DNA from: an uncultured Gammaproteobacteria bacterium
GTDB taxonomy: Bacteria; Patescibacteriota; Patescibacteriia; Magasanikbacterales; UBA922
NCBI GenBank assembly: GCA_964566225.1
Contig: CAZMHV010000001.1
Coordinates: 242,651 to 306,650, forward strand
Reading direction: 5' to 3'
Length of the DNA stretch: 64,000 bases
A program made the translations under genes and the position numbers. The notes below the pieces were generated by a model. That model was not told where the DNA came from and did no database searches. It saw nothing but the letters and a program-made list of their open reading frames with translations. Within the stretch, counting starts at the first letter, position 1. The number at the start of each line of letters is the position of its first letter. This document shows, one piece after another, positions 6,036-62,320 of this stretch.

Positions 6036-7040
6036 ATGAATACCCTTATTTCTCTTGCGAGTAAAAATTTAAGTGACATTATCAATCAGGCTATTTGCCT
6101 CAAACCTACAGAAAAAGCCTTGGTTATTTTTGATACCGAAGCTCCCCTCACCCGTATTGTACTCGAGGGCTATCGAGCAGCATTGCCCGAGGCAAACTTT
6201 GTTGACTTCAACACCATTACCCCTGAACAAGTTCGTGAACTCATTGATGCGTGTACCCCAGGTGATTTGGTGGTACTTTTGCAATCAACCAACTTTCGTC
6301 TCAACGAATTTCGATTTCGCATTGAGCTGTTTGAACGCAAACTCAAGACCATTGAACATGTGCACCTCAAACGAATTTTGGAAGATCAATTTGAATGTTA
6401 TCTAAATGCACTTGCTTACGATGCAAACTACTACCGACCACTTGGCAAGGGTCTCAAAAATATTTTGGAACAAGCCAATGAAATTGTAGTTACCTGCCCT
6501 GGCACCACACTCACCTATATTGGTGGCATGGAAACTGCCAAGTTAAATGTTGGTGATTACAGCGAAATGAAAAATGTGGGTGGCACATACCCAATTGGTG
6601 AAGTCTTTACCGAAGCCAAAGTACTCGAACAAGTGAATGGTGAGGCCATGATCTTTGGTTATGCTGGTGAAGATCACTTGGTACGCCTCATGAAACCATT
6701 TAAAGTGACTATTGAAAAAGGAATTTTGACCACTGGCCCCGATGCTCCAGATGAATTCAACAAAATTCTTGATCTTATTCGTGAAGACGAAGCCGTGTAT
6801 GTACGCGAGTTTGGTATGGGACTCAACCCTGCCATGGGCAAGCACGGACTGGTTTCTGACATTACAGCATTTGAACGCCAAAAAGGCATGCATATTTCAC
6901 TTGGTGCCAAACACGCGATTTATGCCAAACAAGGCCTCAACCGCAAAAAAGGCCGCTACCACGTGGATGTGTTTATTGATATTGAGACCATCACTGCCGA
7001 TGGAAAAGCATTTTATCGTGATGGAAATTTTGTAGTGTAG
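6036..7040 (+). CDS. M29-family (AmpS/aminopeptidase T-like) aminopeptidase, probable
   Basis: C-terminal 'EFGMGLNP', 'HISLG' and 'YHVDVFIDIETITADGKAFYRDGNF' resemble the conserved tail of M29 peptidases. The first in-frame ATG (6036) is chosen; the ORF track starts at a GTG at 6018. Confidence 0.45.
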   Translation: MNTLISLASKNLSDIINQAICLKPTEKALVIFDTEAPLTRIVLEGYRAALPEANFVDFNTITPEQVRELIDACTPGDLVVLLQSTNFRLNEFRFRIELFERKLKTIEHVHLKRILEDQFECYLNALAYDANYYRPLGKGLKNILEQANEIVVTCPGTTLTYIGGMETAKLNVGDYSEMKNVGGTYPIGEVFTEAKVLEQVNGEAMIFGYAGEDHLVRLMKPFKVTIEKGILTTGPDAPDEFNKILDLIREDEAVYVREFGMGLNPAMGKHGLVSDITAFERQKGMHISLGAKHAIYAKQGLNRKKGRYHVDVFIDIETITADGKAFYRDGNFVV

Positions 7041-7197: not shown

Positions 7198-8988
7198 ATG
7201 TCTCTAGACCATCTCCTCACAGAGGCGCGACAACATATTGGACACGTGCAAGAATCACTCGGCAACACGCAAGTAACTCTTGAAACACAGTTTAAAAAAT
7301 TAATGAGTCAGTATCCCAAAGCAGAGGGAGCCGAAAAGATGACGCTGCACACGCTTTTGCAATACACCAAAAAACGACAGCACGAACTGACCGCGCTTCA
7401 CCCTTCACCATACTTTTCACGGTGTGATGTGATTCGAGAACACAAAGATGCAACCGTGTACATTGGAAAATTTTCTTTTCCCGAAGAATCTATTGTGTCT
7501 TGGGTCTCCCCTATTTCTACTCTTCGTTTTGAACATCCAGGACCAGCGACCTACACCACGCCTGATCGCACCAAAAAACCAGTGGTGCTCACGCGCAAAG
7601 ATGAATATATGATTACCGATGGGTCAGTTCTCTTTTTTGCCACCGAATCGATTGACACAGCAAGAACCTTGGTCTACCAAGAAAATTTTTCAAACCGCAA
7701 AACTGGATTTGTTTTGCCCGAAATTATTGCTCGCATGGAAGAAGCGCAAGATAAAGTTATTCGTTCTTCTTGGCGAGGACCCTTGGTTATTTCTGGTCCA
7801 GCAGGATCAGGAAAGACTACATTGGCCCTGCACCGCGTTGCCTACCTCATGCAAGTGCCAGAAATACAAGACCATTTTCCAGGTCACCGTATTCGCGTGT
7901 TTGTGCAAGACCCTGGAACCAAATCATATTTTGCAACACTCCTTCCAGATCTTGGAATTGATAATGTAGAAATAACCACATTTCGACAGTGGGCTCACGA
8001 TATTTTGGAACTTGTTCAAAACGATCAAGCAACCGAAGTGCAATCAGAATATTTGGAAGACATACTGACCAACGAAAAATTACAGATCCTGCGTGAATTC
8101 AAAACACCATTACAAGGTGAACCACTCCGTTGGCTCAAAAATTTGTATAGCATCAATCTTACTAACTCAAAAAATATTGTCCTTTCACGAATAGAAAAAA
8201 ATATCCTTGATGACATTGATCTCACCATTCTTTTGCAAGCATACAAAAAATCCAATGGCACACTGCGCGAATCTCGCGAATATTTTATGCAGCAAAAAAA
8301 TAAATATGAAATTCAAAGAAAAATAGGACGCTTTGATGTTTCGTATAACCTGTGTGTGGTCGATGAATTTCAAAATTATTTGCCCGAGCAACTTCAGCTT
8401 ATTCGCGGATGCATGAACGAAGAAACACAATCGATTGTATATGTGGGTGACATGCGACAACAAACACGATTTGGCACAGTGCAATCATGGAATCAAATTG
8501 GTGAAAATATTGACGACTCAAGACTCATTACCCTGGAAAAGGTCTACCGAAATACCAAAGAAATTTTGCAGTATATTGAATCACTTGGATACGTAGTTTC
8601 TATTCCCGAAGCACTGCCGCAAGGAACGCCGGTACAAGTACTCGCAGAGAGTGTGGAAACACCAGAACACATTAGCACACTTGCAGTCTCACACACGGAC
8701 CGATTGGTGGGTATACTTGCCAAAAACACCTCTGAACTGCTACCATACCTCCACCTTGCAACACACAAACATATCAAAGTCATGACCATACGGGAAGCAC
8801 AAGGTGTCGAATTTGATACGGTCTTTTTGGTGGGCAATACACAACAGACTTGGCAGGTTGATCCTGCGCTCTATACAGATGTCATGCGAAAAGAAAAAAC
8901 ACGCATCAACAAAGATTTACTCTATGTGGCATTGACTCGTGCCATGCGAGAATTGTATGTGGTTGGAACACTTCCACACGTATCTTAA
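7198..8988 (+). CDS. UvrD/Rep-family ATP-dependent DNA helicase (helicase IV/HelD-like)
   Basis: Walker A 'GPAGSGKTT', Walker B 'VVDEFQN', C-terminal 'REAQGVEFDTVFLVG'. ATG at 7198 with AGAGG 10 nt upstream. Confidence 0.75.
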   Translation: MSLDHLLTEARQHIGHVQESLGNTQVTLETQFKKLMSQYPKAEGAEKMTLHTLLQYTKKRQHELTALHPSPYFSRCDVIREHKDATVYIGKFSFPEESIVSWVSPISTLRFEHPGPATYTTPDRTKKPVVLTRKDEYMITDGSVLFFATESIDTARTLVYQENFSNRKTGFVLPEIIARMEEAQDKVIRSSWRGPLVISGPAGSGKTTLALHRVAYLMQVPEIQDHFPGHRIRVFVQDPGTKSYFATLLPDLGIDNVEITTFRQWAHDILELVQNDQATEVQSEYLEDILTNEKLQILREFKTPLQGEPLRWLKNLYSINLTNSKNIVLSRIEKNILDDIDLTILLQAYKKSNGTLRESREYFMQQKNKYEIQRKIGRFDVSYNLCVVDEFQNYLPEQLQLIRGCMNEETQSIVYVGDMRQQTRFGTVQSWNQIGENIDDSRLITLEKVYRNTKEILQYIESLGYVVSIPEALPQGTPVQVLAESVETPEHISTLAVSHTDRLVGILAKNTSELLPYLHLATHKHIKVMTIREAQGVEFDTVFLVGNTQQTWQVDPALYTDVMRKEKTRINKDLLYVALTRAMRELYVVGTLPHVS

Positions 8989-8996
8989 ACTTTTTT

Positions 8997-9629
8997 ATGA
9001 ACCCAATCCGCGCCATTCTCTTTGACATCGACGGCACCCTCCTTAATACCACCGAATTTATTTTGCAGGCTGCTGAACACGCTCTCAAAGTTCACAACCT
9101 CCCCATACCAGACAGAAAAGTTATACGTTTGGCAGTCGGGTTACCAGTAAACGAATACTTTCGCACATTTGCCGGCGACTTTGACCCAAAACTTCTTTTG
9201 GAAACGGTTTCTGAATTTCAACAGCAAAACATGCATTTATCGTTTCCCTATGAAAATGCTTTTACAACCCTTCAAAGACTCAAAAACAAAGGATTCAAAG
9301 TTGGTGCCGTGACTTCACGCAGGAGAGAAAGTATTTTACAAACTCTTGAACCCACAAAAATCACTGCGCTTCTTGATGTACTTGTAGCGGGAGAAGAAAC
9401 AGCCCTTGGTAAGCCCCATGCAGATCCCCTCTTAAAAGCAGTAGAACTACTCAATGAACATCCAGATACTGCTTTCATGGTTGGAGATTCTCATCTAGAC
9501 ATTGCCATGGGCAAAAGTGCCGGCACCAAAACTATTCGTGCCATGTACGGTTTTCATACTGAATTTTTGCATGAACCTGAACCAGATTTTTTTGTTGAGG
9601 ATATTAGTGATATATTAAAAATTGTGTAA
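8997..9629 (+). CDS. HAD-superfamily hydrolase (phosphoglycolate phosphatase/PpaX-like)
   Basis: 'ILFDIDGTLLNT' motif I, and 'GDSHLDIAMGKSAG' motif III. Confidence 0.8.
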   Translation: MNPIRAILFDIDGTLLNTTEFILQAAEHALKVHNLPIPDRKVIRLAVGLPVNEYFRTFAGDFDPKLLLETVSEFQQQNMHLSFPYENAFTTLQRLKNKGFKVGAVTSRRRESILQTLEPTKITALLDVLVAGEETALGKPHADPLLKAVELLNEHPDTAFMVGDSHLDIAMGKSAGTKTIRAMYGFHTEFLHEPEPDFFVEDISDILKIV

Positions 9630-9638
9630 TCATAAACT

Positions 9639-10385
9639 ATGGAAACTCAACTTCCCCCAGATATACGTCAGTCTGTTGAAGATGAAAGAAATAAATTTGA
9701 TCCAATTGAGTTAACTTCGCTTGAAGACATGACTGATTTTTGGCTTACCTTCAGAAAGAATAACGGTCTCACCATAAAAGATACAGAAAAAGAACTCCGT
9801 ATGGCACACCTCCAAGCTCTGGAGACACTGGAAAAAATAAAGGCAGGGAACGAAATTTTTTATGGAGTAAAAAAAGATGGAAAAATTATTGCAACAGGAT
9901 TGCTCCATTTAATACCAGAACGTACCAGTATTCGAAAGGAATCAAATCATTCTTGGTATGCGTACCTCGGACTTCTGACTGTGAATCCTGAATATCGAGG
10001 TAAATCTATTGCAAAAAAATTGACTGAAGTGAGAATGGAAAGAGCCAAACAAGAAGGTGCAGCAGGTGTCACAACTCACGTTTTTGCTTCAAACCCGCGA
10101 GCATTGGCTACTAAATTTGATGATGGATTTTATGTAGATCATTTAAATATTCAAGATGATGAGTTAATTGGGTTTAATTTAAAAAAAGATTTTAAAGAAT
10201 CATACTTTTCTCCAGATCCCAAAAAAGGACACCTTCGAGAACTCAAGGAAGTAAATTTAAGTAATCACCAAAGTATTCGTGAAGATGAAGAAAATGGTTG
10301 GAGAGGAATTGATATTAAAAATCTTGGTGATGCGAAAGATAACGATCCTACAAAATGGAATTTAATACTTGAAAAAGAGTTTTAA
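9639..10385 (+). CDS. GNAT-family N-acetyltransferase
   Basis: 'GLLTVNPEYRGKSIAKKL' resembles the acetyl-CoA binding motif A. Confidence 0.55.
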   Translation: METQLPPDIRQSVEDERNKFDPIELTSLEDMTDFWLTFRKNNGLTIKDTEKELRMAHLQALETLEKIKAGNEIFYGVKKDGKIIATGLLHLIPERTSIRKESNHSWYAYLGLLTVNPEYRGKSIAKKLTEVRMERAKQEGAAGVTTHVFASNPRALATKFDDGFYVDHLNIQDDELIGFNLKKDFKESYFSPDPKKGHLRELKEVNLSNHQSIREDEENGWRGIDIKNLGDAKDNDPTKWNLILEKEF

Positions 10386-10411
10386 AAAAGCAGCCTTGAA
10401 AAGCTGCTTTT

Positions 10412-10909
10412 CTATTCTATCATCAATAGAGTATACTCTACTTTTTTGCCCGCAATCTCCACTTTCACCGTCTCCCCCACTTTTCGTCCCAGCAGTGCTG
10501 CACCAATCGGAGAATTTTGTGAAATCACGCCTTGCGCTGGATTACTTTCGGAGGAACCCAAAATAGTATATTGTTTTTGTTTTCCGCCAGATTCAATAGT
10601 CACAGTATGTCCAATTTCAACACGAGTATTTTGCCGAGGTCTTTGAATAATGTCTGCCGCATTCAATTGTTTTTCTAAATCGAGTATTCCTTGGTTAATG
10701 CCACGCAATTTTCCTTTGGCAAGCTGATACTCCACATTTTCTGAAAAATCCCCCAGTTCTGCCAAACGACTCACTTCTTTGGCTGCAGCCGGCTGCACCG
10801 CACGAAGTCGCTCCAACTTTTTTTGCAATTCCAAAAACTTATCCTCGGTCATGGTCGGGTCTTTGGGAATAAGGGCGTATTTGCCTGGTTTGCGGTATGG
10901 GACTTGCAT
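10412..10909 (-). CDS. greA: Transcription elongation factor GreA
   Basis: Full-length match to the GreA family ('LAELGDFSENVEYQLAKG', C-terminal FKBP-like domain). Confidence 0.9.
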   Translation of the reverse strand: MQVPYRKPGKYALIPKDPTMTEDKFLELQKKLERLRAVQPAAAKEVSRLAELGDFSENVEYQLAKGKLRGINQGILDLEKQLNAADIIQRPRQNTRVEIGHTVTIESGGKQKQYTILGSSESNPAQGVISQNSPIGAALLGRKVGETVKVEIAGKKVEYTLLMIE

Positions 10910-20718: not shown

Positions 20719-20759
20719 ATATCCCGGATGCTCTCATAGCACCGGGATATTTTTATTTT
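20719..20759 (+). terminator. Rho-independent terminator after the sugar transferase
   Basis: ATATCCCGG-loop-CCGGGATAT (9 bp) followed by TTTTTATTTT. Confidence 0.65.
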
Positions 20760-20811: not shown

Positions 20812-20994
20812 TCAGGGAGCGCTGGGTGGCTGGCGCAGGTACTTCCACATTTGCACGGGAATACTGAGCACCGCCCAAACGTAACAAACGATGAGAAAAC
20901 CGATCGCCGGAATCCGGACGAACTGATCTCCCAACGTCTCAGGCTGAAGCCCCCGCTGCATGAACGTTCGCTTCTTCTCCTGCTCTTGCGTCAT
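20812..20994 (-). CDS. small single-TM peptide (60 aa) encoded in a GC-rich islet, hypothetical
   Basis: ATG with GGAGAG 8 nt upstream; hydrophobic 'IPAIGFLIVCYVWAVLSIPV'. The islet (20755-21070) is much GC-richer than its flanks. The ORF track's TTG start at 21009 is not used. Confidence 0.25.
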   Translation of the reverse strand: MTQEQEKKRTFMQRGLQPETLGDQFVRIPAIGFLIVCYVWAVLSIPVQMWKYLRQPPSAP

Positions 20995-21075
20995 CTCGTC
21001 TCTCCACAAAGAAAAACCAGGATGACTCTATCATGTTTTTTGAAGAAAATCAATGAGACATCAAACGAAAGAAGT

Positions 21076-53932: not shown

Positions 53933-55262
53933 ATACTTCTCGAACAATTTTTCTGTCGTCCCAAGGAATAATTTTTCCTTTCACCACCATGCCCTGTTCA
54001 CTGCCCTTGCCTGTAATAAGTACCAAATCTTGTGGTCCTGCCATTTCAAGGGCCTTTTCAATGGCCTCTTTGCGATCCAAAATTTTAAATATATTTGTGC
54101 CTTCTTGTTTGCCTGTTTTCAGTACAGCAGAAGCCACATCATCAATAATGGTTTGAGGATTATCGTCGTATGGGTCTTCGTCGGTAATAATACACATGTC
54201 AGCATGATTCCCCACAAACTCACCCACGGTAAAACGACGCTGCACATCTCGGCCACCACCAGTAGAACCAAATACATGAATCACACGTTTGGGTACCAAA
54301 AGTTTTACTACTTCGTACAATTTTTGAATTGCCACAGGCTCAAATGCATAATCCACAATAACCTGAAATCCTTTTGCTTCGGCTTCTTTGATAAATTCCA
54401 AACGTCCTTCTGGTCCCTGCAAATTATTCACAGCTTGTTTTAACAGTGCCTCGGAAATTTGTAACCGATGCGCCACAGTGAGTGCTGCCAAAATATTTGA
54501 CACATTGTGTTCACCATAGAGTGGTGCATGAAAACTGTTTCCATTCCATACAAAGTGCAAACCATTTTTATCTGTGACAATATTTGCATTTGAACTTTGA
54601 AATTGTAATTTTTCATCAAAAGAATACTGCAAAAATTCATTGGCATATTCATTGTCGCCGTTGACCACAGCAATTTTTGGAATAGTATTTGAAAAAATCT
54701 TTTGCACTTTTGGTGTGAGCGCACGTGGTCCAGTCCATCGTCTTTGTGTGCCATGCACATTTTTGCGTCGAAGATTTGCAATGTGTTTGAAAAAAGAAAG
54801 TTTGGCGCCTTTGTAATTTTTGAAACTGCCATGTGACTCGATGTGTTCTGGATACAAATTGGTGAGCATGGCAATGTCGTAATTGATAAACCGGTGACGA
54901 TGCTGCACTACACCTTCGGATGTGGTTTCCACAATGGCAATGTCACATTGTTTGTTTACCATTTCACGCAAATACTTTTGAATTTGCATTTTGCCAAGCA
55001 TGGTCATTTTTTGGTCGTTGAGTTTCATTTCACCATTGATGTAAAAATCAATGGTAGAAAGTGAGCCGACTTTGAAACCAGCAGACTCCAAAATTTGTCG
55101 TAGAAAAAAAGTGGTGCTTGATTTGCCACTGGTTCCCGTAATACCAATCACCAGCAAACAATCTGCAGGGTGATGGTATTCGAGCGCGCCATACCAAGCA
55201 TAGTACAAATGCTTGAGGTTACGAATAGGTTTGGGGAGGAGTTTTTTGATGAGGGTTTTCAT
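53916..55262 (-). CDS. Mur ligase family protein, probably UDP-N-acetylmuramoyl-tripeptide synthetase (MurE-like, lacking the N-terminal domain)
   Basis: 'VIGITGTSGKSSTTF', 'NLYPEHIESHG', 'GRLEFI', 'DYAFEP' match MurE/Mur-ligase motifs. Confidence 0.6.
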   Translation of the reverse strand: MKTLIKKLLPKPIRNLKHLYYAWYGALEYHHPADCLLVIGITGTSGKSSTTFFLRQILESAGFKVGSLSTIDFYINGEMKLNDQKMTMLGKMQIQKYLREMVNKQCDIAIVETTSEGVVQHRHRFINYDIAMLTNLYPEHIESHGSFKNYKGAKLSFFKHIANLRRKNVHGTQRRWTGPRALTPKVQKIFSNTIPKIAVVNGDNEYANEFLQYSFDEKLQFQSSNANIVTDKNGLHFVWNGNSFHAPLYGEHNVSNILAALTVAHRLQISEALLKQAVNNLQGPEGRLEFIKEAEAKGFQVIVDYAFEPVAIQKLYEVVKLLVPKRVIHVFGSTGGGRDVQRRFTVGEFVGNHADMCIITDEDPYDDNPQTIIDDVASAVLKTGKQEGTNIFKILDRKEAIEKALEMAGPQDLVLITGKGSEQGMVVKGKIIPWDDRKIVREVLKKTS

Positions 55263-55441
55263 AGGATTGATTTATTTTAGCGGAATTAAAGAGAAAATAC
55301 AACCCATTTAAAAAAATTTGACAAAAAAATAAAGTTCGTATAAAGTTGAATTATATGAATAAACAAATCTCATCAATCCAAACTACCACCACAACCTGCC
55401 CTCTTGGCTAAGGCTGTGGTTTGATATCTCTATCTTCCAAA

Positions 55442-55468
55442 CTGCCCTAGCCGGGGCAGTTTTTGTTT
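55442..55468 (+). terminator. Terminator-like hairpin followed by a T-run, upstream of the GC-rich small ORF
   Basis: CTGCCC-loop-GGGCAG then TTTTTGTTT. Confidence 0.35.
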
Positions 55469-55539
55469 ATCGCGATATGCATCGATGCGGAATGGTCCGT
55501 GTCGATGCAGGGTCGCGAGAAACAGAAGAAGGAGGAAAT

Positions 55540-55887
55540 GTGAGACCTGATCTCTACCATCCGTGGTCGCCAGACGTGGGGCAGATGCTTCACGTCGGAA
55601 GCTGGCAGGTGGGATGTGTGCCACCGAGGGAGATGAAAGTGGAGGTCACGGTGCCTCCCGTGCAAAAGAAAGGACGGACGGCGTTCGCAGAGTGGCTCAA
55701 GGGGGTGAGCCAGTCGGAAAGCCGGATGCGAGTGCCAGGCGAGATCATCACCATGGGCGAGAACGTCTGCTCATGCTACATTTGCACGTGTGGATGCTAT
55801 AACCAATCGCGAGGAGGGATGCAGTACTTCATCGAAAAGCGTGAAGGCGTGTTCGTTCACGACTTCTGCGGAGAATCGGTGGAGTGA
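55540..55887 (+). CDS. GC-rich small cysteine-cluster protein (about 115 aa), hypothetical
   Basis: GTG start 4 nt after a perfect AAGGAGG; about 58% GC against an AT-rich background; motif 'CSCYICTCGCY' plus 'DFCGE'; followed by a strong GC hairpin terminator. Confidence 0.35.
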   Translation: MRPDLYHPWSPDVGQMLHVGSWQVGCVPPREMKVEVTVPPVQKKGRTAFAEWLKGVSQSESRMRVPGEIITMGENVCSCYICTCGCYNQSRGGMQYFIEKREGVFVHDFCGESVE

Positions 55888-55935
55888 AAAAAAAGGCGGC
55901 CGAGGATGTTCCCGGCCGCCGCTTCGATTTTGTTT
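55887..55935. terminator. Bidirectional rho-independent terminator with an 8-bp all-GC stem
   Basis: A8-GGCGGCCG-loop-CGGCCGCC-GCTTCGATTTTGTTTT between convergent genes. Confidence 0.7.
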
Positions 55936-56282
55936 TAGAGGGCATTTACAAATCCCTGAAGAAAAGCAATATCTTCACCTGTACCAATTTTATTTTTTTT
56001 GAGAATTTCAATTACCTTTTGTTTGTAATCTTTATCTTTTTGAGATTCTTTTTCAAGGCGTTTAAAAATGTCTGTGGTATAATCTGATAGTTTTCGATCA
56101 ATATATGTCTTCAGATTATGTTCTAACTTCACGTTTTCTGATTTCATCTCTGTTCGTAAACCATCGATTTTTCCATCCATCATATCTGACATGGCCGGAA
56201 TCAAAAAATCATTAGCAAACTCTACCAATAAATCTTTCATTTCTTCTTTTGTTGCAGGAGAATTATTTTTCATATACATCAA
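55935..56282 (-). CDS. hypothetical helical protein (115 aa), co-transcribed downstream of the translin homologue
   Basis: AT-rich native-type composition; no recognisable motif. Confidence 0.45.
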   Translation of the reverse strand: MMYMKNNSPATKEEMKDLLVEFANDFLIPAMSDMMDGKIDGLRTEMKSENVKLEHNLKTYIDRKLSDYTTDIFKRLEKESQKDKDYKQKVIEILKKNKIGTGEDIAFLQGFVNAL

Positions 56283-56316
56283 TTATAATCATCCTTTTCT
56301 TTTTCTGTCAAGTCTG

Positions 56317-56901
56317 CTACTTTCCACCACGCAGTGTCGTCTCATACACCACCACCTCAAGTTTATGCGCCGCCTGTTTGGCCTGGTCAAATTTGTTGCG
56401 TAAATATTTGGTGAGATTAAATTCCATGAGTTCACCAATAATTTCTTCGGCAGCAAGGGAACATTTTTTTACTGTGTTCATGTCGTGATTGGTTGCGGCA
56501 CGAATGGCGTAGCGAAAGAGTTCGCCTGGAACATCACAGAGACCTGCCAAATAAATTTCACCTGGCACATCAAGTCCTTTGACTTCTCCCATTTCTCCGG
56601 TTTTCAAAAATTGGTAAAATAAACTGGCTTCCACATATTCTTCGAGTGCTGCGGCAAAAACACCTTCGTCTTGAATTTCTGGATTCTTTTTATTGCGTTT
56701 GACCAAATCTTTCATGATGGATTCCACGAGTTTCAACTTTTGTTCGGCCTCTTTGACTTCACCTCGGTGAAGATCAAAAATAACTCGCTTGGCATGGTGC
56801 AAAGCATCGTCAGAACTTTTAATAACGTCCCGGCGGATGAGGGCGTATTCATGAAGATTTTTCTTGAGTTTTTCTACGTAATTCTTTTTGAGCATAGGCA
56901 A
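56317..56901 (-). CDS. Translin-family protein
   Basis: 'EEYVEASLFYQFL', 'YLAGLCDVPGELFRYAIRAATNHD' and 'LRNKFDQAKQAAHKLEVVVYETTLRG' align with the human translin C-terminal region ('YLVGVLQLASELSRLSVNSVTAGD', 'LRKRYDGLKYDVKKVEEVVYDLSIRG'). Confidence 0.6.
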   Translation of the reverse strand: MPMLKKNYVEKLKKNLHEYALIRRDVIKSSDDALHHAKRVIFDLHRGEVKEAEQKLKLVESIMKDLVKRNKKNPEIQDEGVFAAALEEYVEASLFYQFLKTGEMGEVKGLDVPGEIYLAGLCDVPGELFRYAIRAATNHDMNTVKKCSLAAEEIIGELMEFNLTKYLRNKFDQAKQAAHKLEVVVYETTLRGGK

Positions 56902-56958
56902 AAATAAGGGTCAATAAGTGCCTGTATTATATACTCCCCACCCCTTTTGGTCAAAAAC

Positions 56959-56987
56959 TTGACTTTTTTTTGAAAAAGTTTTATTAT
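56959..56987 (+). promoter_or_regulatory. sigma70-like promoter TTGACT-N17-TATTAT upstream of tRNA-Lys
   Basis: Exact 17-nt spacer; the tRNA begins 21 nt downstream. Confidence 0.5.
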
Positions 56988-57008
56988 AAAGCGGTTCAAA
57001 AAAACCAT

Positions 57009-57081
57009 GGGATGGTAGCTCAGTCGGTAGAGCAGTAGCCTTTTAAGCTAATGGTCCTGGGTTCGATCCCCAGCCGTCCCA
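57009..57081 (+). tRNA. tRNA-Lys (anticodon TTT)
   Basis: Acceptor GGGATGG/CCGTCCC, D-arm GCTC-AGTCGGTA-GAGC, anticodon loop CTTTTAA, T-arm CTGGG-TTCGATC-CCCAG, discriminator A; no encoded CCA. Confidence 0.8.
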
Positions 57082-57084
57082 CAC

Positions 57085-57120
57085 AAAAAAATACCTCGAG
57101 AAATTCGAGGTATTTTTTAT
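57085..57120 (+). terminator. Rho-independent terminator after tRNA-Lys
   Basis: ATACCTCGA-GAAAT-TCGAGGTAT followed by TTTTTT. Confidence 0.7.
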
Positions 57121-57239
57121 TATATTTTTCAATCCCGCACTCCTAGAATATGTCGAACAGTCAACAGATTCTGCTGCTGCGGGATCGACGAAATTTCACC
57201 TTCTCCCCCGCAACAACACCGGCATTGCACCGGGGGGGG

Positions 57240-58145
57240 TCAGTAGTCGATCTGGTTCGCCGGGAGCGGATCGATGAGCCTGATCTGGCGGAGGCGACGG
57301 AACTTGTAGGCGCCGGCCGTCACCAGAGGCTGAGTGACCTCCGGGTGGATGAAGATCGGCATGGAGAACCGATCCCGGCAGGCCGCGCGCGGGTTGACCA
57401 CGCGGTGCGTCACCGAGGGGATCTCGCCGAACGTGTGCATCTGCAGCATGTCACCAGGGTTGACGATGATCGACCCCATGGGGTTGTTGGCGTCCAGCCA
57501 CACGCCGTCGCGCGTCTTCACCTGCAGGCCCGGCTCGTCCGACGGCACCAACAGAGTGACCAGGTTGATGTCCTCGTGATCACCCGAACGGGGCACTTCG
57601 GGGTCCGAGCCGTCCAGCGCCGGGTAGTGGATGACGCGGAGCAGGTTCTCGCCCTTGGCGATCCAGTTGAGGAAGAAGTTCGGATCGCGACCGAGGTGCA
57701 TGGCGAGCGCCTTCAGGATCGTTCCACCAGCACAGGCCTTGAGCGCCGCGTGAAGTTCCAGAGCCGTGGGCCCGAAGTCCGGCACCTCGACCGGGAACTC
57801 GTTCCGAACGATCGACGCCGGATCGTTGACGTGCCAGAAGGCCATGCGGTTGGCCCGGGTCTGCCCCACCGAGACTTCGGTGTCCGCGGGCGTGAAGCCC
57901 ATCTGGTGACCCTCGGCCACGAACTCGTACCGCAGCCGCTGCTCCAGGGTCATGCGGGTGAGGAAGACCTCACGCGCGAGCTCGAAAGCCCGGGCGAGAA
58001 GATTCTCCTGCACGCCGTGTCCGACGATGGAGACGAAGCCGTGCTCACGGAAGATACGCCCGAGCGCGTCCGCGATTTCCATGTCTCCCGCTTCGTCTTC
58101 TCCGAAGCGGTGCATGTCAAGAATGGGAATACCACTCAATTTCAT
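57240..58145 (-). CDS. 2OG-Fe(II) oxygenase, isopenicillin-N-synthase-like family (GC-rich, foreign composition)
   Basis: N-terminal DIOX_N-like 'IPILDMHRF', HxD 'HEDINLVTLL', distal His in 'THRVVNP'; about 62% GC. Confidence 0.7.
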   Translation of the reverse strand: MKLSGIPILDMHRFGEDEAGDMEIADALGRIFREHGFVSIVGHGVQENLLARAFELAREVFLTRMTLEQRLRYEFVAEGHQMGFTPADTEVSVGQTRANRMAFWHVNDPASIVRNEFPVEVPDFGPTALELHAALKACAGGTILKALAMHLGRDPNFFLNWIAKGENLLRVIHYPALDGSDPEVPRSGDHEDINLVTLLVPSDEPGLQVKTRDGVWLDANNPMGSIIVNPGDMLQMHTFGEIPSVTHRVVNPRAACRDRFSMPIFIHPEVTQPLVTAGAYKFRRLRQIRLIDPLPANQIDY

Positions 58146-58214
58146 TACCCTTTCAATTTGAGTTCAATTATCCCAGGCAACCACGCCCGAGAACCACCCG
58201 CAAGAATACAAAAA

Positions 58215-58240
58215 ATACTTTTGATTGTCAACAAAAGTAT
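58215..58240 (+). promoter_or_regulatory. Perfect 9-bp inverted repeat ATACTTTTG-N8-CAAAAGTAT (operator candidate) overlapping the -35
   Basis: Seen in the divergent intergenic region between the oxygenase and the nucleoside phosphorylase. Confidence 0.4.
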
Positions 58241-58268
58241 TGACAAACAGAAGAATTTTCTTTATTCT
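58240..58268 (+). promoter_or_regulatory. sigma70 promoter TTGACA-N17-TATTCT for the nucleoside phosphorylase gene
   Basis: Consensus -35, 17-nt spacer; AGGGGA RBS before the ATG at 58300. Confidence 0.5.
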
Positions 58269-58299
58269 GCACCTACACCAACAACCAGGGGAAACCCAA

Positions 58300-59109
58300 A
58301 TGAGTGAGAAAGCTGTCTCGGCAGCCCGTCCGATCATCGGTGGACTGACCATGCACCTCAAGACCGCGCCGGGCTCGCTGGCGCCGCACTGCCTCATGGT
58401 GGGCGCGGCGGGGCGTGCACGGACGATCGCGCAGGAGTACCTGACCGGCGCAGTCAAGGTGGGCGGTGACGACAACCGCTACTACGACTGCTACACGGGC
58501 GAGTACAGGGGGTTGCCGATCTCCGTGGTCACCCACGGGATCGGCATGCCTTCGATGCTCATCGCGATCGAAGAGTCCCGCATGTCAGGTGCCCAACGGT
58601 ACCTGCGAATCGGGTCGTGCTCCACGCTCCGGCGAGACATCAACATCGGTGACGTAGCCATCGTGGCCGGCGCGCTCCCGCCGGGCGCGACAGACATCGA
58701 CGGGTTGGTGAATGCTGACCCAAGGATGTACCACGCGCTTCTCGAAGCTGCAGACAAGATCGTCAAGGTGCCCTATGCCTACGGCATCTGCGTGACCACC
58801 AACGACTTCACTGGTGGGCAGGGCAGGCCGGACGCAGAAGGCTTCCTGGACGAGGAGGACAAGCTCGATCACGAAGCGAGGATCAACGGCGGCGAGATCG
58901 ACTTCTACGACATGGAGAACTACGCGCTGTTCAACCGGGCCAGGACTCGTCGCACCGCGAGACGCGCCGGCTTCATGGCCGGCAGCGTGATGGCGGTATA
59001 CGGCAACCGCATCACTGACCAGCTCGTCGAGCACGCCGGTGACAAGGAGACCATCGAGACGGCCCTGCAGGCCATGGTGCTGCTCGCGCACGACCACCCC
59101 CTCCCCTGA
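58300..59109 (+). CDS. PNP/UDP-family (family-1) nucleoside phosphorylase/nucleosidase (GC-rich, foreign composition)
   Basis: 'HCLMVGAAGRARTIAQEYL' resembles the DeoD 'VVLMPGDPLRAKYIAETFL' region; 'ISVVTHGIGMPSMLIAIEE' and 'GSCSTLRRDINIGDVAIV' resemble the family core. Confidence 0.65.
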   Translation: MSEKAVSAARPIIGGLTMHLKTAPGSLAPHCLMVGAAGRARTIAQEYLTGAVKVGGDDNRYYDCYTGEYRGLPISVVTHGIGMPSMLIAIEESRMSGAQRYLRIGSCSTLRRDINIGDVAIVAGALPPGATDIDGLVNADPRMYHALLEAADKIVKVPYAYGICVTTNDFTGGQGRPDAEGFLDEEDKLDHEARINGGEIDFYDMENYALFNRARTRRTARRAGFMAGSVMAVYGNRITDQLVEHAGDKETIETALQAMVLLAHDHPLP

Positions 59110-59217
59110 CCTTGCCTCGGCAAGGGGACACGCGGGTGGCATCAAGGACGACGTCACCCGGACTGTGCATTTCATTTTTGAAAAATACAGTTTGGAGATG
59201 TGATGTCGTCTCAACAT

Positions 59218-59256
59218 AAAAATAATCCCGTTTTCTGCGGGATTATTTTTTTATCT
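59218..59256. terminator. Bidirectional rho-independent terminator
   Basis: AATAATCCCG-loop-CGGGATTATT followed by TTTTTTT. Confidence 0.65.
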
Positions 59257-59264
59257 TTCAAATT

Positions 59265-59678
59265 TTAATTTGCCTTCTTAAACTTCACCTGAAACACTGG
59301 CTCATAATTTTGTTCGTATTCATCAGTTACAGAAACAGTCTCCCCTTTCATTACTTGAGTCATAGCAATGTCACTGAGCATTTCGTTGTCACTTTCAATG
59401 TCAATTTTCAAATCTTCAATTTGTTGAAATTCGTTGTGAAAATCTTGGCGAATGGTATTTTCAATTGATTTTTTCTTTTCACGAAGGGTCTTGAGTTTTT
59501 CCATGGCCTCAACATATTCTTGCACGGTTTTGAGCGCATCACTGTATGATGTTTTTAAATCTTTCATTTTCTTTTTATTTTTTTGAATGCGCACGAAAAT
59601 TTCTTGGATGTTTTGCATAGAGTCATGAAGAAGTAAAAATGATTGCTCTATTATAGATGAAAAAATGATTCTGGTCAA
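59265..59678 (-). CDS. hypothetical coiled-coil protein (AT-rich, native composition)
   Basis: Lys/Glu-rich helical ORF between two GC-rich genes. Confidence 0.45.
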   Translation of the reverse strand: MTRIIFSSIIEQSFLLLHDSMQNIQEIFVRIQKNKKKMKDLKTSYSDALKTVQEYVEAMEKLKTLREKKKSIENTIRQDFHNEFQQIEDLKIDIESDNEMLSDIAMTQVMKGETVSVTDEYEQNYEPVFQVKFKKAN

Positions 59679-59813
59679 AGAACAAAAAAACTGACTCTAT
59701 ATGAATCAGTTTTTTTGTAATTTGTGAAAACAAAATTTTCTTTGCACAAATCTCCCCCGGCCGCCTTGCACGAAATTGTGAACAGGGCGGGCCGGTGAAT
59801 ACGTTGTTGTGGG

Positions 59814-60896
59814 TTACTGAACTGCCGAGACAGCCTGAGCATCAGCAGGTGCACAGATACTCGTCATCACCTCGTGAGTCCTGGCCATCTCCGGAAATGA
59901 CGGAAACTGAAACCCTGAGAGTGTCTGAACATGCGAGGACTTGTCGAGCTTGAGCAGCTTGGTGATATCCTCCATCTGCTCGGCACAGAAAATATCGTCG
60001 AGCACAGCCTGACGAACCGGTGTTTCCTCATACGCCGCTTGATAGGCCATAGCTTCGGCCACCACAAACTGCATATACTGCTCGCGGATGTCTCCAATGC
60101 AGAGTGAGATCTGATTGGGATTTTTCACCCCGTTCAGATGAAAATCTGCGAGCAAATTGAGCGCCACAACGGAACGAATCACGAACTGTCCATTGGCATC
60201 CCTCGGCAACGCCTCCCGCAGATTCCAGTGCAACTGTGCACACTGGGCTTCGCGGTGACGTGTACGAAAGCACTCCAACTTCTTGGCCGCCGCTCGACTG
60301 GTCTTGGCTGCACTCGTCAGCACACCTTCGCACTGAGCTCGAGTGCTCTCGGTCAGACTGACCTTCTCCGTGATCAGTTTGGACGAAGGTGCAAAGCCCC
60401 GCCACTCCCAGTCTTCACTGTAAACCTTACATGGGAGATTCCTACAGACGGTGAGCAGATCAGCGTCCGAGACCACCGCCTGAACCGAGGACGAGACCGC
60501 CACGGTTGGTAGCGCAGGTGGAAGAGGTGGAGTTGGCGCTGTCGTATCAGGTTCCAGAGACGGAGGCGAAACCGGCGATGATAGCATCACCGGAAGGGAC
60601 TTCGCCGGGACAGGAAGAACCAGCGTCGGCTCCGAAGAGATTGCGCCCAGCAACCACGCGATGTCATCCAAATCCCCTGCAGCATGGAAGTCTTCGACCA
60701 CCACCTCCTTTTCGTCTTGCGAACTGCCCCCCGAGGCTCCCAGGAAGTATCCACCTCCAAACGACACAGCCCAGAGAAACAGAACGCTGCGGACGACGTT
60801 CCGAAGAGCCTTTCCACTCAACTCGATTTTGTTGCTCACGACAGACTCCCCTCGCGCCTCGCGCGAATTGAAAAAGTGAAGCATCAGTCGACCCAT
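59814..60896 (-). CDS. hypothetical membrane-anchored protein with Pro-rich linker (GC-rich, foreign composition)
   Basis: About 55% GC; N-terminal TM 'VVRSVLFLWAVSFGGGYFLGA', linker 'PTPPLPPALP', Cys-containing C-terminal domain. Confidence 0.45.
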   Translation of the reverse strand: MGRLMLHFFNSREARGESVVSNKIELSGKALRNVVRSVLFLWAVSFGGGYFLGASGGSSQDEKEVVVEDFHAAGDLDDIAWLLGAISSEPTLVLPVPAKSLPVMLSSPVSPPSLEPDTTAPTPPLPPALPTVAVSSSVQAVVSDADLLTVCRNLPCKVYSEDWEWRGFAPSSKLITEKVSLTESTRAQCEGVLTSAAKTSRAAAKKLECFRTRHREAQCAQLHWNLREALPRDANGQFVIRSVVALNLLADFHLNGVKNPNQISLCIGDIREQYMQFVVAEAMAYQAAYEETPVRQAVLDDIFCAEQMEDITKLLKLDKSSHVQTLSGFQFPSFPEMARTHEVMTSICAPADAQAVSAVQ

Positions 60897-61045
60897 TCGA
60901 CCGAAAATACAACAGAAAAAATTTTCTCCTGTACATTCGGCCGAATCTATAACAACGTATTTTTTCTCCTCATAAAAAGAACAACTTAGAAAATTCTAAG
61001 TTGCTGAGTATAGCAAAAAAAACTTATAAAGTCAAGAAGCAACGC

Positions 61046-62230
61046 TTAAAACCGATACAACTGCATAAGACGCTCCAAATACTTCTCCCTCGACAACATC
61101 TCAATCCCTGCTCGGCCAGTCATACCCATTGTACAAACCTCGCCTGGGTGCTCCACACACCACTGCAATTTTTCACGCAAAGAATTTTCATTTCCTGCCA
61201 CAAAAGTAAAACCATTCTCACCCTCTTTAATCAGCTCGGCAATCCCTTCAATATTACTTGCCAGCACCGGCGTTTTGTACGAAAAACTTTCAAAAATAAC
61301 TGTGGGAGAATTTTCGTAGCACAGAGATGGCACGACCGTGATATCGACAGTTTCAAATACGGCAGATAATTCCGAGTGTTCAAGTCGTCCATGAATTTTT
61401 ATATTTTTTTCTGCATCAACAAGTGTATGCAGCTCTTGCAATTTTGAACCCGTACCAACAATGTGCAATTCACATGGCACAGAACTTTTTTTGACAAAAT
61501 CACAAAATGTTTTGGCCAAAAATAAAACCCCTTTGTGTGTTTCAATTTGCCCTAGATACAAAAAGCGAAACACATCATTTTCTTTTTTAACAATATCTGC
61601 CACATCCAGCATCACGGGATTGCGCAGCACCACACGCTCAGAATCAGCAAAAAATCCCCACTTCTCATAGAACTGCAACAAAAATTGCGAAGGAGAAATC
61701 ACTACATTTGGTGAACCCAAAAGTCGTCGCATAATTGCAGCATAAACGCGAGTAACAAATCCACGATAACGCCATGAATTTTCTTTTTGTTTCAAAATAA
61801 TGCCACTTGGTTCTACCAATTGCACATCATGCACCGTGTGCACATGCAAAATTTTGAGTGAACGAATAACACGTGAAATAAGAAATCCAATTCCCATAAA
61901 ATTGTGTGTGTGCACCACATCTGGTTTTTCTTGTACCAAAATCTTTTTTATTGATCGAGCAGAGTCAAAATTCCAAATATCAACAACATGCCACCACAAC
62001 CGAGAGAGCGCTGAATGTTTGTGAGCGTCCAAATACGAAAAAATATTTTGTGGACAAAGACGATAAATAGTCACATTCCCCTTTTTTTCTACTTCAAAAT
62101 TTGGTCCAAGCGTAATAACCACCACTGAGTGCCCAGCCTCAACCAAACCCTGGACAGTCTTAAAAACCACCTGTTCGGCTCCGCCGCGGGCATAAGGTGG
62201 GTATAAATTGTGGACGATAGCGACTTTCAT
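61046..62230 (-). CDS. Glycosyltransferase family 4
   Basis: 'MKVAIVHNLYPPYARGGAEQVV', C-terminal 'VVPSLCYENSPTVIFESFSYKTPVLASNIEG'. Confidence 0.8.
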   Translation of the reverse strand: MKVAIVHNLYPPYARGGAEQVVFKTVQGLVEAGHSVVVITLGPNFEVEKKGNVTIYRLCPQNIFSYLDAHKHSALSRLWWHVVDIWNFDSARSIKKILVQEKPDVVHTHNFMGIGFLISRVIRSLKILHVHTVHDVQLVEPSGIILKQKENSWRYRGFVTRVYAAIMRRLLGSPNVVISPSQFLLQFYEKWGFFADSERVVLRNPVMLDVADIVKKENDVFRFLYLGQIETHKGVLFLAKTFCDFVKKSSVPCELHIVGTGSKLQELHTLVDAEKNIKIHGRLEHSELSAVFETVDITVVPSLCYENSPTVIFESFSYKTPVLASNIEGIAELIKEGENGFTFVAGNENSLREKLQWCVEHPGEVCTMGMTGRAGIEMLSREKYLERLMQLYRF

Positions 62231-62320
62231 ATAGAGCAGTATACGCAATCAAGCGAAATTTCGCAATGGGGCAAAATCCTTGAAAAGAAGGCTGTTTTAC
62301 GGTAAGATACTATTTACCCT

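Follow-up and report, generated by a model that had tools for sequence, protein, structure and literature searches.

GC-rich accessory genes interleaved with an AT-rich backbone beside tRNA-Lys in a Magasanikbacterium

Accessory and mobile genes usually have a lower GC content than the genomes that carry them. The vls antigenic-variation locus of Borrelia and the var genes of Plasmodium are GC-enriched, recombination-active variable loci in AT-rich genomes. Recombination hotspots flanked by core genes are known from many bacterial species, and such hotspots have been linked to accessory and mobile regions (review PMC11879095). The effects described for recombination and selection on bacterial GC content amount to a few percent (PMC11879095); the wider debate on this relationship is treated in the same review and in Lassalle et al. 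2015 as cited there. For transfers into Patescibacteria, the donors are mostly other Patescibacteria (PMC12455944). The literature that we consulted contains general work on recombination and bacterial GC content, as well as on horizontal gene transfer (HGT) in Patescibacteria, and none that describes the pattern presented here: GC-rich coding regions that alternate with AT-rich genes around tRNA-Lys in a 64,000-nucleotide (nt) stretch of contig CAZMHV010000001.1 (assembly GCA_964566225.1). This whole stretch is called the window in the following. The organism is a Magasanikbacterium (Patescibacteria).

We assign a probability of roughly 0.6 to the reading that this locus is a flank-homology recombination hotspot which carries a lineage-specific, compositionally stable pool of GC-rich accessory genes in Magasanikbacteria. 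A core-flanked, tRNA-proximal plasticity zone is an already known kind of feature. What appears to be new is the stable GC-rich cargo in an AT-rich genome of the candidate phyla radiation (CPR), the single-gene slots, and the coding-region-exact replacement of cargo behind conserved promoters.

Composition of the tRNA-Lys region

The background GC content across the window is 0.41, and outside 55–61 kb no 1-kb bin exceeds 0.46. Four coding regions within 55540–60896, which encode a Cys-rich protein, a 2-oxoglutarate (2OG)–Fe(II) oxygenase, a uridine-phosphorylase-like enzyme, and a 360-residue protein, have a GC content at third codon positions (GC3) of 0.62–0.85, calculated per gene in the correct frames. 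The remaining open reading frames (ORFs) of the window have GC3 values of 0.22–0.51 (0.22–0.44 for the long genes), with one 65-residue exception at 20812–21009. These values confirm a preliminary description of the sequence that had called the locus a mosaic. The same description had counted at least five composition switches within about 5.5 kb; a 200-nt GC profile resolves six major ones, plus a dip at the spacer between the oxygenase and the phosphorylase. Codon positions 1 and 2 (GC1 and GC2) are also raised in the island genes, and their codon usage is typical of high-GC genes. The encoded proteins have an excess of Pro, Arg, Gly, Ala, and Cys and a deficit of Lys, Ile, Asn, and Tyr.

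AT-rich native genes, promoters, and terminators separate the four GC-rich coding regions. The eight intergenic spacers of the region have GC contents of 0.31–0.55, and the 154-bp spacer between the two most GC-rich genes, the oxygenase and the phosphorylase, has 40% GC. Downstream of the stop codons, the GC-rich stretches continue for 60–100 nt into the 3′ untranslated regions (UTRs), up to GC-rich hairpins. Promoter-like and terminator-like sites bracket each unit (Table 1). Each cassette is its own transcription unit, which agrees with the earlier proposal that the GC-rich blocks are transcribed separately. Two ORFs of 385 and 210 residues antisense to the oxygenase and the phosphorylase are spurious frames, and the 385-residue ORF has no Pfam match.

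The preliminary description had also considered that the mosaic could be an assembly artefact. This idea was abandoned: the junctions are identical in Logan contigs from two runs and are repeated in diverged strains from four runs. We refer to related loci by L numbers. A 32-kb contig from run SRR16481186 (L001) is 100% identical to positions 43916–64000 of the window, and a 1.3-kb contig from SRR16481187 (L002) extends from the spacer through the phosphorylase and the terminators into part of cc137, a native coiled-coil gene. The same gene order and the same switches are present in the diverged loci L094 (SRR25018341) and L095 and L096 (SRR22388202 and SRR22388221). Locus L097 (SRR13076510) contains the same junctions in diverged sequence. 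Many metagenome-assembled genomes (MAGs) from different groups share gene order and switches. Finally, the switches correspond to complete genes equipped with sigma-70-like promoters, terminators, and Shine–Dalgarno sequences at the proper spacing.

The 65-residue exception is a second, isolated GC-rich (57%) mini-ORF on the minus strand with a GC3 of 0.71. It probably encodes a small membrane protein and sits just past a terminator at 20725–20755. This ORF indicates that the GC-rich phenomenon extends beyond the tRNA-Lys locus. Cysteine is 2.7-fold enriched in island relative to native proteins (43 genes from L003–L096 and the window), and several small island proteins are Zn-ribbon-like (L028 4769–5131, L032 4382–4747, and L037 6386–7180).

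Backbone, slots, and cassette exchange

Relatives of the backbone were collected by a translin-anchored scan with one genome per species, which gave 80 loci. Most of them are titled Candidatus Magasanikbacteria or Magasanikiibacteriota; their translins are 51–81% identical to that of the window, with the closest at 77–81%. The conserved order is DnaB–GT4–(slot C)–cc137–(slot A)–tRNA-Lys–translin–(slot B)–Mur, where GT4 is a glycosyltransferase and Mur a ligase that is also identified by Pfam. Slot A adjoins tRNA-Lys at its 3′ side, slot B separates translin from Mur, and slot C separates GT4 from cc137. The gene cc137 occurs in many relatives and is 99% identical in L094 and 92% identical in L095.

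The same conserved core genes flank different accessory content in different genomes. The closest labelled relative, L009 (translin 81%, DnaB 80% identical), reads GT4–cc137–tRNA-Lys–translin with slots A and C empty. In L010, slot A is occupied by a gene for orotidine 5′-monophosphate (OMP) decarboxylase (PyrF) and slot B by an unrelated small ORF. Non-homologous slot ORFs are found in L010, L011, L016, L029, L034, L037, L044, L052, L080, L084, L086, and others. Slot B alone contains non-homologous GC-rich inserts of 400–1300 bp in at least 11 loci, bounded by the AT-rich terminator of translin and by the TTGTCAA −35 box of the Mur promoter. The slot B block of the window has no similarity to the slot B inserts of relatives by blastn or tblastx, so these inserts are non-homologous to it. 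GC-rich islands adjoin the 3′ side of tRNA-Lys in at least 12 loci. Across the loci of relatives, 80 of 1524 ORFs lie 0.12 or more in GC above the locus median, and 4 of 1524 lie as far below it. Pfam assigns 7 of the 42 island proteins of relatives to PNP_UDP_1 phosphorylases, 2 to OMP decarboxylases, and 2 to 2OG oxygenases. Other families (kinase, SDR-type, ClpP, response regulator, and others) have one member each, and most of the 42 proteins are without any Pfam domain. Phosphorylases and OMP decarboxylases are over-represented in this set. The suggestion of the preliminary description that the locus is a hotspot is supported by this comparison, since the slots are empty or differently filled among Magasanikbacteria.

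Comparison of close strains reveals flanks that are far more alike than the cargo between them. Between the window and L094, the native proteins DnaB, cc137, and GT4 are 100%, 99%, and 93.5% identical, with synonymous divergences (dS) of 0.22, 0.13, and 0.42. The corresponding values for the cargo are 90% and 0.58 for the oxygenase, 83% and 0.69 for the phosphorylase, and 53% and 0.84 for the 360-residue protein. The ratios of nonsynonymous to synonymous divergence (dN/dS) are 0.12, 0.16, and 0.41, in the same order. The first two values indicate that both enzymes are functional and under purifying selection. Relative to the window, DnaB and cc137 of L095/L096 are 97% and 92% identical, the phosphorylase 42%, and the oxygenase 35%. 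Both L096 and L094 retain about 90% identity to the window in the promoter spacer between phosphorylase and oxygenase, in L096 as far as the start codon of the phosphorylase. The L096 oxygenase is nearer to other members of the subfamily (45–48%) than to the clade of the window. A spacer conserved to about 90% next to an oxygenase of a different lineage implies that the coding region was replaced behind the same promoter. On the strength of this greater similarity to the rest of the subfamily, hyper-divergence of the L096 oxygenase in situ was rejected. Slot B tells of the same contrast. Between L010 and L011, translin is 99.5% identical and the flanks 92–93%, and the interior cannot be aligned. 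Between the window and L097, the promoter and small RNA upstream of the Cys ORF are about 90% identical, and the protein is 57% identical with an internal duplication. On the basis of these alignments, we infer that cassettes are gained, lost, and replaced by homologous recombination through conserved flanks.

We propose that the locus is a conserved plasticity zone. Its AT-rich backbone consists of DnaB, GT4, cc137, tRNA-Lys, translin, a small RNA, and the Mur ligase. Native promoters and terminators delimit the three short slots that remain between these genes. In the window, slot A is filled with the divergently transcribed nucleoside-phosphorylase/2OG-oxygenase pair, slot B with a small Cys/His-rich protein, and slot C with a fast-evolving, membrane-anchored, and disulfide-rich protein. 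Natural transformation would be the most plausible route of entry before recombination with the flanks, and turnover of the cassettes would proceed without an integrase.

Several further observations were made at these loci. In L094, a 1.6-kb AT-rich insertion (64–1659) fills exactly the interval from the tRNA-Lys terminator to the oxygenase 3′ flank; it contains ORFs of 441 and 80 residues without Pfam, NCBIfam, or PHROG match. Slot A therefore takes AT-rich cargo too. A tRNA-Arg(GCG) gene is located between the homologue of the 360-residue gene and cc137 in L095 (4105–4179) and L096 (3430–3504) and is absent from this position in the window. The GC-rich Arg codons that it decodes make this tRNA a suggestive find in view of the codon usage of the cargo. 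The orientation of tRNA-Lys relative to translin is reversed in L009 (9816–9891) and L023 (4346–4421), which points to local inversion at the hotspot. In L036, a Magasanikbacterium with a background of 58% GC, a gene with 69% GC and a GC3 of 0.88 (6111–6944) lies directly past the tRNA-Lys terminator. Many species-representative records titled "uncultured Gammaproteobacteria bacterium" (L009, L011–L013, L017, L019, L022, and other CAY*/CAZ* accessions) carry the translin–Mur–tRNA-Lys synteny. These MAG records have 30–47% GC and a synteny of Magasanikbacteria type, and their titles look wrong.

Age and maintenance of the GC-rich state

The oxygenase has 7350 relatives among 5.8 billion proteins. 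Five of these exceed 50% identity and the rest reach at most 42%. Queries for exact copies of the oxygenase and of the long translin ORF returned nothing; the called starts or frames probably differ. The five close relatives, together with three found later, are mostly lone GC-rich genes on low-GC contigs of CPR type, and their neighbours, where recognisable, are Magasanikbacteria-like. Locus L003 has the backbone of the window and a divergent phosphorylase–oxygenase pair by tRNA-Lys with GC3 values of 0.84 and 0.82. In the syntenic loci L004 and L093, the oxygenase occupies the same site, is 82% identical (native median 79.5%), and has GC3 values of 0.81 and 0.85. The native strong/weak state at four-fold degenerate sites is 91% randomised between these two loci. 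A gene with 100% GC at the time of the L004/L093 split would be expected to reach 0.57 under the native process; the oxygenase is observed at 0.85, with its four-fold state nearly randomised around this value. The nine island orthologue pairs identified as reciprocal best matches are without exception GC-rich on both sides, and five of these pairs match the native median in conservation. One example is the PunA-type phosphorylase beside tRNA-Lys in L020 and L050, which is 68% identical versus 57% for native genes. Orthologous cassettes that are GC-rich in both genomes are found at the same syntenic position where native genes are 56–80% identical. GC-richness of orthologues across such deep divergence indicates that the composition is long-standing rather than an un-ameliorated scar. 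The GC-rich composition is no sign of recent import; it is common to every orthologue pair examined. Of the earlier suggestion of several independent insertions at a hotspot, the hotspot is corroborated, and fresh import from distant GC-rich donors finds no support.

The spectrum of synonymous differences bears on how the GC-rich state is maintained. At four-fold sites, G↔C differences per strong (S; G or C) site are 2.4–3.1 times the native value in the pairs window/L094, L004/L093, and L028/L032. This excess could mean deeper coalescence, a higher local mutation rate, or changes from strong to weak (W; A or T) and back (S>W>S) under a GC-restoring force. Between the window and L094, 59 four-fold S↔W differences were observed. 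The expectation is 118 if the native process had acted 2.7 times longer, and 44 if it had acted for the same time. A model in which the cassettes have their own equilibrium (4Nes ~1.9, ~2.5-fold deeper divergence) gives about 65 by hand calculation from the same counts. The cassettes might be placed at their own compositional equilibrium by a GC-favouring fixation bias, through selection on transcript or DNA or through biased repair or conversion, which would oppose the AT-biased background process. We advance tentatively, at somewhat less than even odds, that Magasanikbacteria hold an accessory class at its own equilibrium (GC3 ~0.7–0.9) in genomes of 30–45% GC by such a bias, specific to these genes.

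Three forces are candidates. Selection on transcript or DNA composition would fit the boundaries at transcription units, including the 3′ UTRs. GC-biased conversion tied to cassette exchange would fit the elevated divergence. The third candidate is repeated import from a GC-rich reservoir that is not yet sampled. Other explanations were rejected. Adenine-specific mutagenesis of transcripts, similar to that of diversity-generating retroelements, is inconsistent with the sense-strand AT skew, which differs between genes. Translational codon selection alone does not explain the GC-richness of the 3′ UTRs, the raised GC1 and GC2, or the low GC3 of highly expressed native genes, DnaK among them. 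Structured RNA, considered in view of slot B inserts of 400–500 nt, is not the cause of the blocks, since all four have protein homologues with conserved residues. Rfam searches of the region and of the whole window identified tRNAs only.

Several points weigh against a stable, flank-exchanged GC-rich pool. The counts in the spectrum test are small, with 11 native G↔C differences. Polarisation by parsimony yields an S>W to W>S ratio of about 3:1 for the oxygenase, by a method that is biased toward S>W with GC-rich outgroups; this excess could mean that slow amelioration is under way. Biased conversion leaves unexplained why cc137 and the promoter spacer inside the hotspot are AT-rich. Exchange through the flanks is deduced from conserved flanks around divergent cargo, with no event directly observed. 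The argument for persistence assumes vertical inheritance of the syntenic orthologues, and re-import of co-diverging alleles from a reservoir would mimic it. The search for phosphorylase homologues gave 2 matches, its reach being restricted by the word index.

The sharpness of the composition switches in a metagenome-assembled genome could be taken for a chimera, in which reads of GC-rich organisms were joined to an AT-rich CPR contig during assembly or binning. The chance of this is negligible given the identical contig L001, the junction crossed by L002 from a second run, the recurrence of the gene order with diverged sequence in four more runs and in many MAGs from various groups and assemblers, and the match of the switches to complete genes with correctly placed expression signals. 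More can be said for the remnant of one or more integrase-mediated islands at the 3′ end of tRNA-Lys that have since lost integrase and attachment (att) sites. Variable cargo of atypical composition does adjoin the 3′ end of the tRNA: GC-rich cargo begins within ~60 nt of the tRNA-Lys terminator, and the same adjacency to tRNA-Lys recurs in at least 12 relatives. The L004 oxygenase adjoins tRNA-Glu, and tRNA-Arg is found inside the L095/96 locus. However, a Pfam scan detected no integrase, recombinase, or transposase domain among the window ORFs at 53.9–62.2 kb or the 42 island proteins of relatives, and a repeat search of 55200–61100 produced only chance matches in AT-rich, low-complexity sequence, with the tRNA 3′ end nowhere directly repeated. 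This outcome confirms what the preliminary description had reported from inspection. Moreover, slots B and C are not tRNA-adjacent, native cc137 and translin are interleaved among the cargo, and replacement proceeds gene by gene behind conserved promoters. We regard such a remnant as very improbable.

Recent, independent acquisition from distant GC-rich bacteria such as Proteobacteria, Myxococcota, or Actinobacteria, with amelioration still to come, would account for the high GC3, the raised GC1 and GC2, and the high-GC codon usage. It would also fit the distant oxygenase relatives (35–42%), which are labelled Myxococcota, Pseudomonadota, or Cyanobacteria, the GC-rich 3′ flanks and hairpins that travel with the genes, and the presence of two composition classes (0.85 and ~0.65), as expected from donors of different kind or age. 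This explanation is nevertheless quite improbable. No close homologue occurs in a GC-rich context; the nearest ones (54–90%) are mostly on low-GC CPR contigs, several of them syntenic. The GC-rich state is common to orthologues diverged to synonymous saturation, and promoters, Shine–Dalgarno sequences, and terminators are of native type and AT-rich up to the start codons. The cassettes could instead spend most of their history in an unsampled GC-rich reservoir (a plasmid or phage, a CPR lineage of high GC content, or the host bacterium on which the epibiont lives), with re-import into the chromosomal slots so frequent that it masks amelioration. The divergence of the cargo speaks for it: the 360-residue protein is 53% identical between close strains with identical DnaB, the enzymes of L095/96 fall to 42% and 35% where DnaB is at 97%, the dS of cassettes is 1.4–6 times that of native neighbours, and the excess of G↔C differences fits a deeper coalescence of alleles. 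Published transfers into Patescibacteria, which come mostly from other Patescibacteria (PMC12455944), are compatible with this idea. A reservoir is still unlikely, because copies in a GC-rich context or in viruses are missing from 5.8 billion proteins, from 1.84 billion representatives, and from IMG/VR. Scans of IMG/VR with the oxygenase alignment, the 360-residue protein, and the Cys ORF returned no match and give no sign of a reservoir in phages. Where the oxygenase matches its surroundings (L005, L006, and L008; ~50–56% GC), its GC3 of 0.57–0.64 is too low for a source. Enzyme orthologues track the divergence of the backbone in five of nine pairs, and incoming alleles would need the AT-rich flanks of the recipient.

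Cargo, significance, and comparison with described systems

The oxygenase matches PF14226 with 58.8 bits and PF03171 with 52.1 bits (cut-offs 23 and 27.3). In a six-member alignment, H190-x-D192, H247, and R259-x-S261 are invariant, corresponding to the HxD...H iron triad and the RxS motif for binding of 2OG. Relatives with solved structures comprise proteins of unknown function, an ethylene-forming-type enzyme, and a thymine dioxygenase (E = 1e-21). The PHROG match of the oxygenase (phrog_30382, unknown function) gives no support for a phage role. A PADLOC scan for anti-phage defence systems likewise lends no support to a defence role. It returned no match for the oxygenase, the only cassette protein tabulated individually; 34 families were matched by one member each, and those shown are kinase-type (PD-T4-6, Stk2, mad6, and MkoA), which fits one Ser/Thr kinase from another locus. 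The phosphorylase belongs to the PF01048 superfamily as a member only (57.5 bits, cut-off 25.1). It is not an equivalog of the TIGR01718 uridine phosphorylase (100.1 bits versus a cut-off of 280.3), and its best PDB relative is the uridine phosphorylase 3qpb (E = 5e-19).

The divergent pairing of the oxygenase with a uridine-phosphorylase-like enzyme occurs in the window, L094, L003, and L095/96. In L093, the same oxygenase clade is paired divergently with a PunA-type phosphorylase (9005–9892 and 10001–10903). Pairing with two phosphorylase subfamilies argues for functional coupling of the two activities, which probably form a module for nucleoside or base salvage, as judged from these sequence relationships. 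The fungal thymine-7-hydroxylase salvage pathway (PDB 5c3p) offers a parallel for the function of this cargo only. As in that pathway, the oxygenase combines DIOX_N with the 2OG-FeII_Oxy family, and it is coupled here with the uridine-phosphorylase-like enzyme (PunA-type in L093). Among solved structures, however, proteins of unknown function score higher than thymine dioxygenase, and no iso-orotate decarboxylase was seen nearby. The palindrome ATACTTTTGATTGTCAACAAAAGTAT at 58205–58240 overlaps both divergent −35 boxes of the oxygenase/phosphorylase spacer. The core of the palindrome, TTGTCAA-N7-8-ATTGACAA, recurs in the spacers of L094, L096, L003, and L093 and is thus retained even by distant relatives. 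This palindrome is a likely candidate for an operator that co-regulates the pair.

In addition to a membrane anchor at the N terminus, the 360-residue protein has a hypervariable stalk rich in Pro and a helical domain with 8 conserved Cys residues. The largest libraries contain only 5 homologues, 46–56% identical, and divergence is concentrated in the stalk. The structure model is all-helical and of low confidence, with no informative fold match. This protein is probably a surface protein. The Cys ORF has 7 homologue clusters among 1.84 billion representatives, with invariant Cys and His residues in the motif CxCxxCxCGC...R.G...H..C. Its start is confirmed by the homologue P0130 on L097, and no fold match was found. 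The invariant CxCxxCxCGC...H..C pattern suggests that this protein binds metal.

A small RNA or leader is located between the Mur promoter and the slot B cassette on the plus strand of the window (55318–55465), in L097 (160–300), and in L029 (~8230–8340). It comprises a sigma-70-like promoter, a CCACAACC...GGCTGTGG hairpin, and an intrinsic terminator, with a fold z-score of −4.8. The element is ~90% conserved in L097 and recognisable in the distant L029, and each time it precedes a different GC-rich ORF on the same strand. No Rfam family matches the transcribed part (55350–55465). This element could be a small regulatory RNA or an attenuator that controls the content of the slot. The TTGTCAA/TTGACAA motif is also found upstream of Mur in relatives.

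Table 1. Features of the window between 55318 and 62248
Feature	Position	Strand	Remarks
Sigma-70-like promoter TTGACA-17-TAAAGT	55318..55346	+	palindromic −35 region common with the divergent Mur-ligase promoter
Native AT-rich small RNA or leader	55350..55465	+	hairpin and intrinsic terminator 55439–55462; left border of slot B
Slot B cassette, 115-residue Cys-rich protein	55540..55887	+	GC 0.58, GC3 0.71; GTG start after AAGGAGG Shine–Dalgarno
GC-rich bidirectional terminator hairpin	55895..55920	.	closes the Cys-ORF unit; conserved in L097
Native AT-rich 115-residue ORF	55935..56282	-	GC3 0.25; no Pfam, NCBIfam, or PHROG match
Translin-family gene, native anchor	56317..56901	-	PF01997 E = 3e-19; GC3 0.42; probable ATG at 56895
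tRNA-Lys(UUU), backbone element	57009..57082	+	conserved across the phylum; 3′ flank is slot A
AT-rich native tRNA terminator	57086..57118	+	left border of slot A
GC-rich 3′ untranslated flank of the oxygenase	57135..57239	-	81% identical in L094
2OG-Fe(II) oxygenase, slot A gene 1	57240..58145	-	GC 0.64, GC3 0.85; isopenicillin-N-synthase-like type
AT-rich spacer and 5′ UTRs	58146..58299	.	two divergent TTGACA-17-TATTCT promoters around the palindrome ~58205–58240
Sigma-70-like promoter	58231	-	
Sigma-70-like promoter	58240	+	
Uridine-phosphorylase-like nucleoside phosphorylase, slot A gene 2	58300..59109	+	PF01048; GC 0.65, GC3 0.84
GC-rich 3′ UTR hairpin, then AT-rich bidirectional terminator	59110..59250	+	terminator 59218–59250 common with cc137
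cc137, native AT-rich coiled-coil gene	59265..59678	-	GC3 0.35; anchor between slots A and C
AT-rich bidirectional terminator	59676..59724	.	between cc137 and the 360-residue gene
Sigma-70-like promoter	59678	-	
Slot C cassette, 360-residue protein	59814..60896	-	GC 0.56, GC3 0.62
Terminator-like hairpin	60980..61005		
Sigma-70-like promoter TTGACT-17-TATACT of the 360-residue gene	61007..61035	-	
GT4 glycosyltransferase, native right-side anchor	61046..62248	-	GC3 0.37; Pfam

If the cassettes are indeed held at their own equilibrium, this genome would resemble an isochore-like bacterial genome with two compartments, the accessory one being more GC-rich than the core. Such an arrangement would reverse the usual rule that accessory and mobile genes are the more AT-rich ones, would perhaps also exist in other CPR bacteria, and would require a bias that persists long enough to saturate synonymous sites. 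Composition-based detection of HGT takes GC-atypical genes as recent imports; here they mark old, vertically persisting, lineage-specific genes. Atypical composition on old genes implies that such detection, as well as amelioration clocks, would mislead in CPR genomes. With two proposed equilibria a few hundred bases apart and sharp boundaries at transcription units, the locus is a test case for the control of GC content by mutation, selection, or biased conversion. The single-gene landing pads suggest how minimal symbionts may try new functions without mobile-element machinery. The recurrent cargo (nucleoside phosphorylases, OMP decarboxylase, and oxygenase) suggests that nucleotide salvage, on which CPR bacteria centrally depend, varies between strains, and the hypervariable surface protein may matter for the interaction with hosts or phages.

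The locus shares traits with several described systems. Like tRNA-linked genomic islands, which are integrase-mediated and include pathogenicity islands, it has atypical cargo of varying content at the 3′ side of a tRNA gene. In contrast to these islands, it lacks integrase and att repeats, native genes are interleaved, and two of the three slots are not tRNA-adjacent. Integron cassette arrays are similar in that they contain small, mostly single-ORF units of atypical composition that are swapped between strains and often have unknown functions. Here, no integron integrase (IntI) is present, and no attC site was recognised (no dedicated attC model was run). Native genes separate the units, which have their own sigma-70-like promoters and mixed orientations, and the hairpins after the ORFs are ordinary intrinsic terminators.

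A local and stable rise in GC content within an AT-rich background, high allelic divergence, and recombination are also typical of Borrelia vls and Plasmodium var. In the present locus, however, ordinary cytoplasmic enzymes are affected too, silent donor cassettes are absent, and the neighbouring anchor gene and the promoter spacer remain AT-rich. Compared with the few-percent effects in bacterial core genes, the contrast of GC3 0.85 versus 0.34 is far larger. Core-flanked recombination hotspots share with this locus the conserved core flanks, the strain-variable cargo without self-mobility genes, flanks that are more conserved than the cargo, and a nearby tRNA gene. Unlike these hotspots, the Magasanikbacteria locus has slots of single-gene size between native promoters and terminators, and cargo can be replaced with coding-region precision, the promoter in front of it staying the same. 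The hotspot is kept across a whole candidate phylum rather than one species, and its cargo is consistently far more GC-rich than the host.

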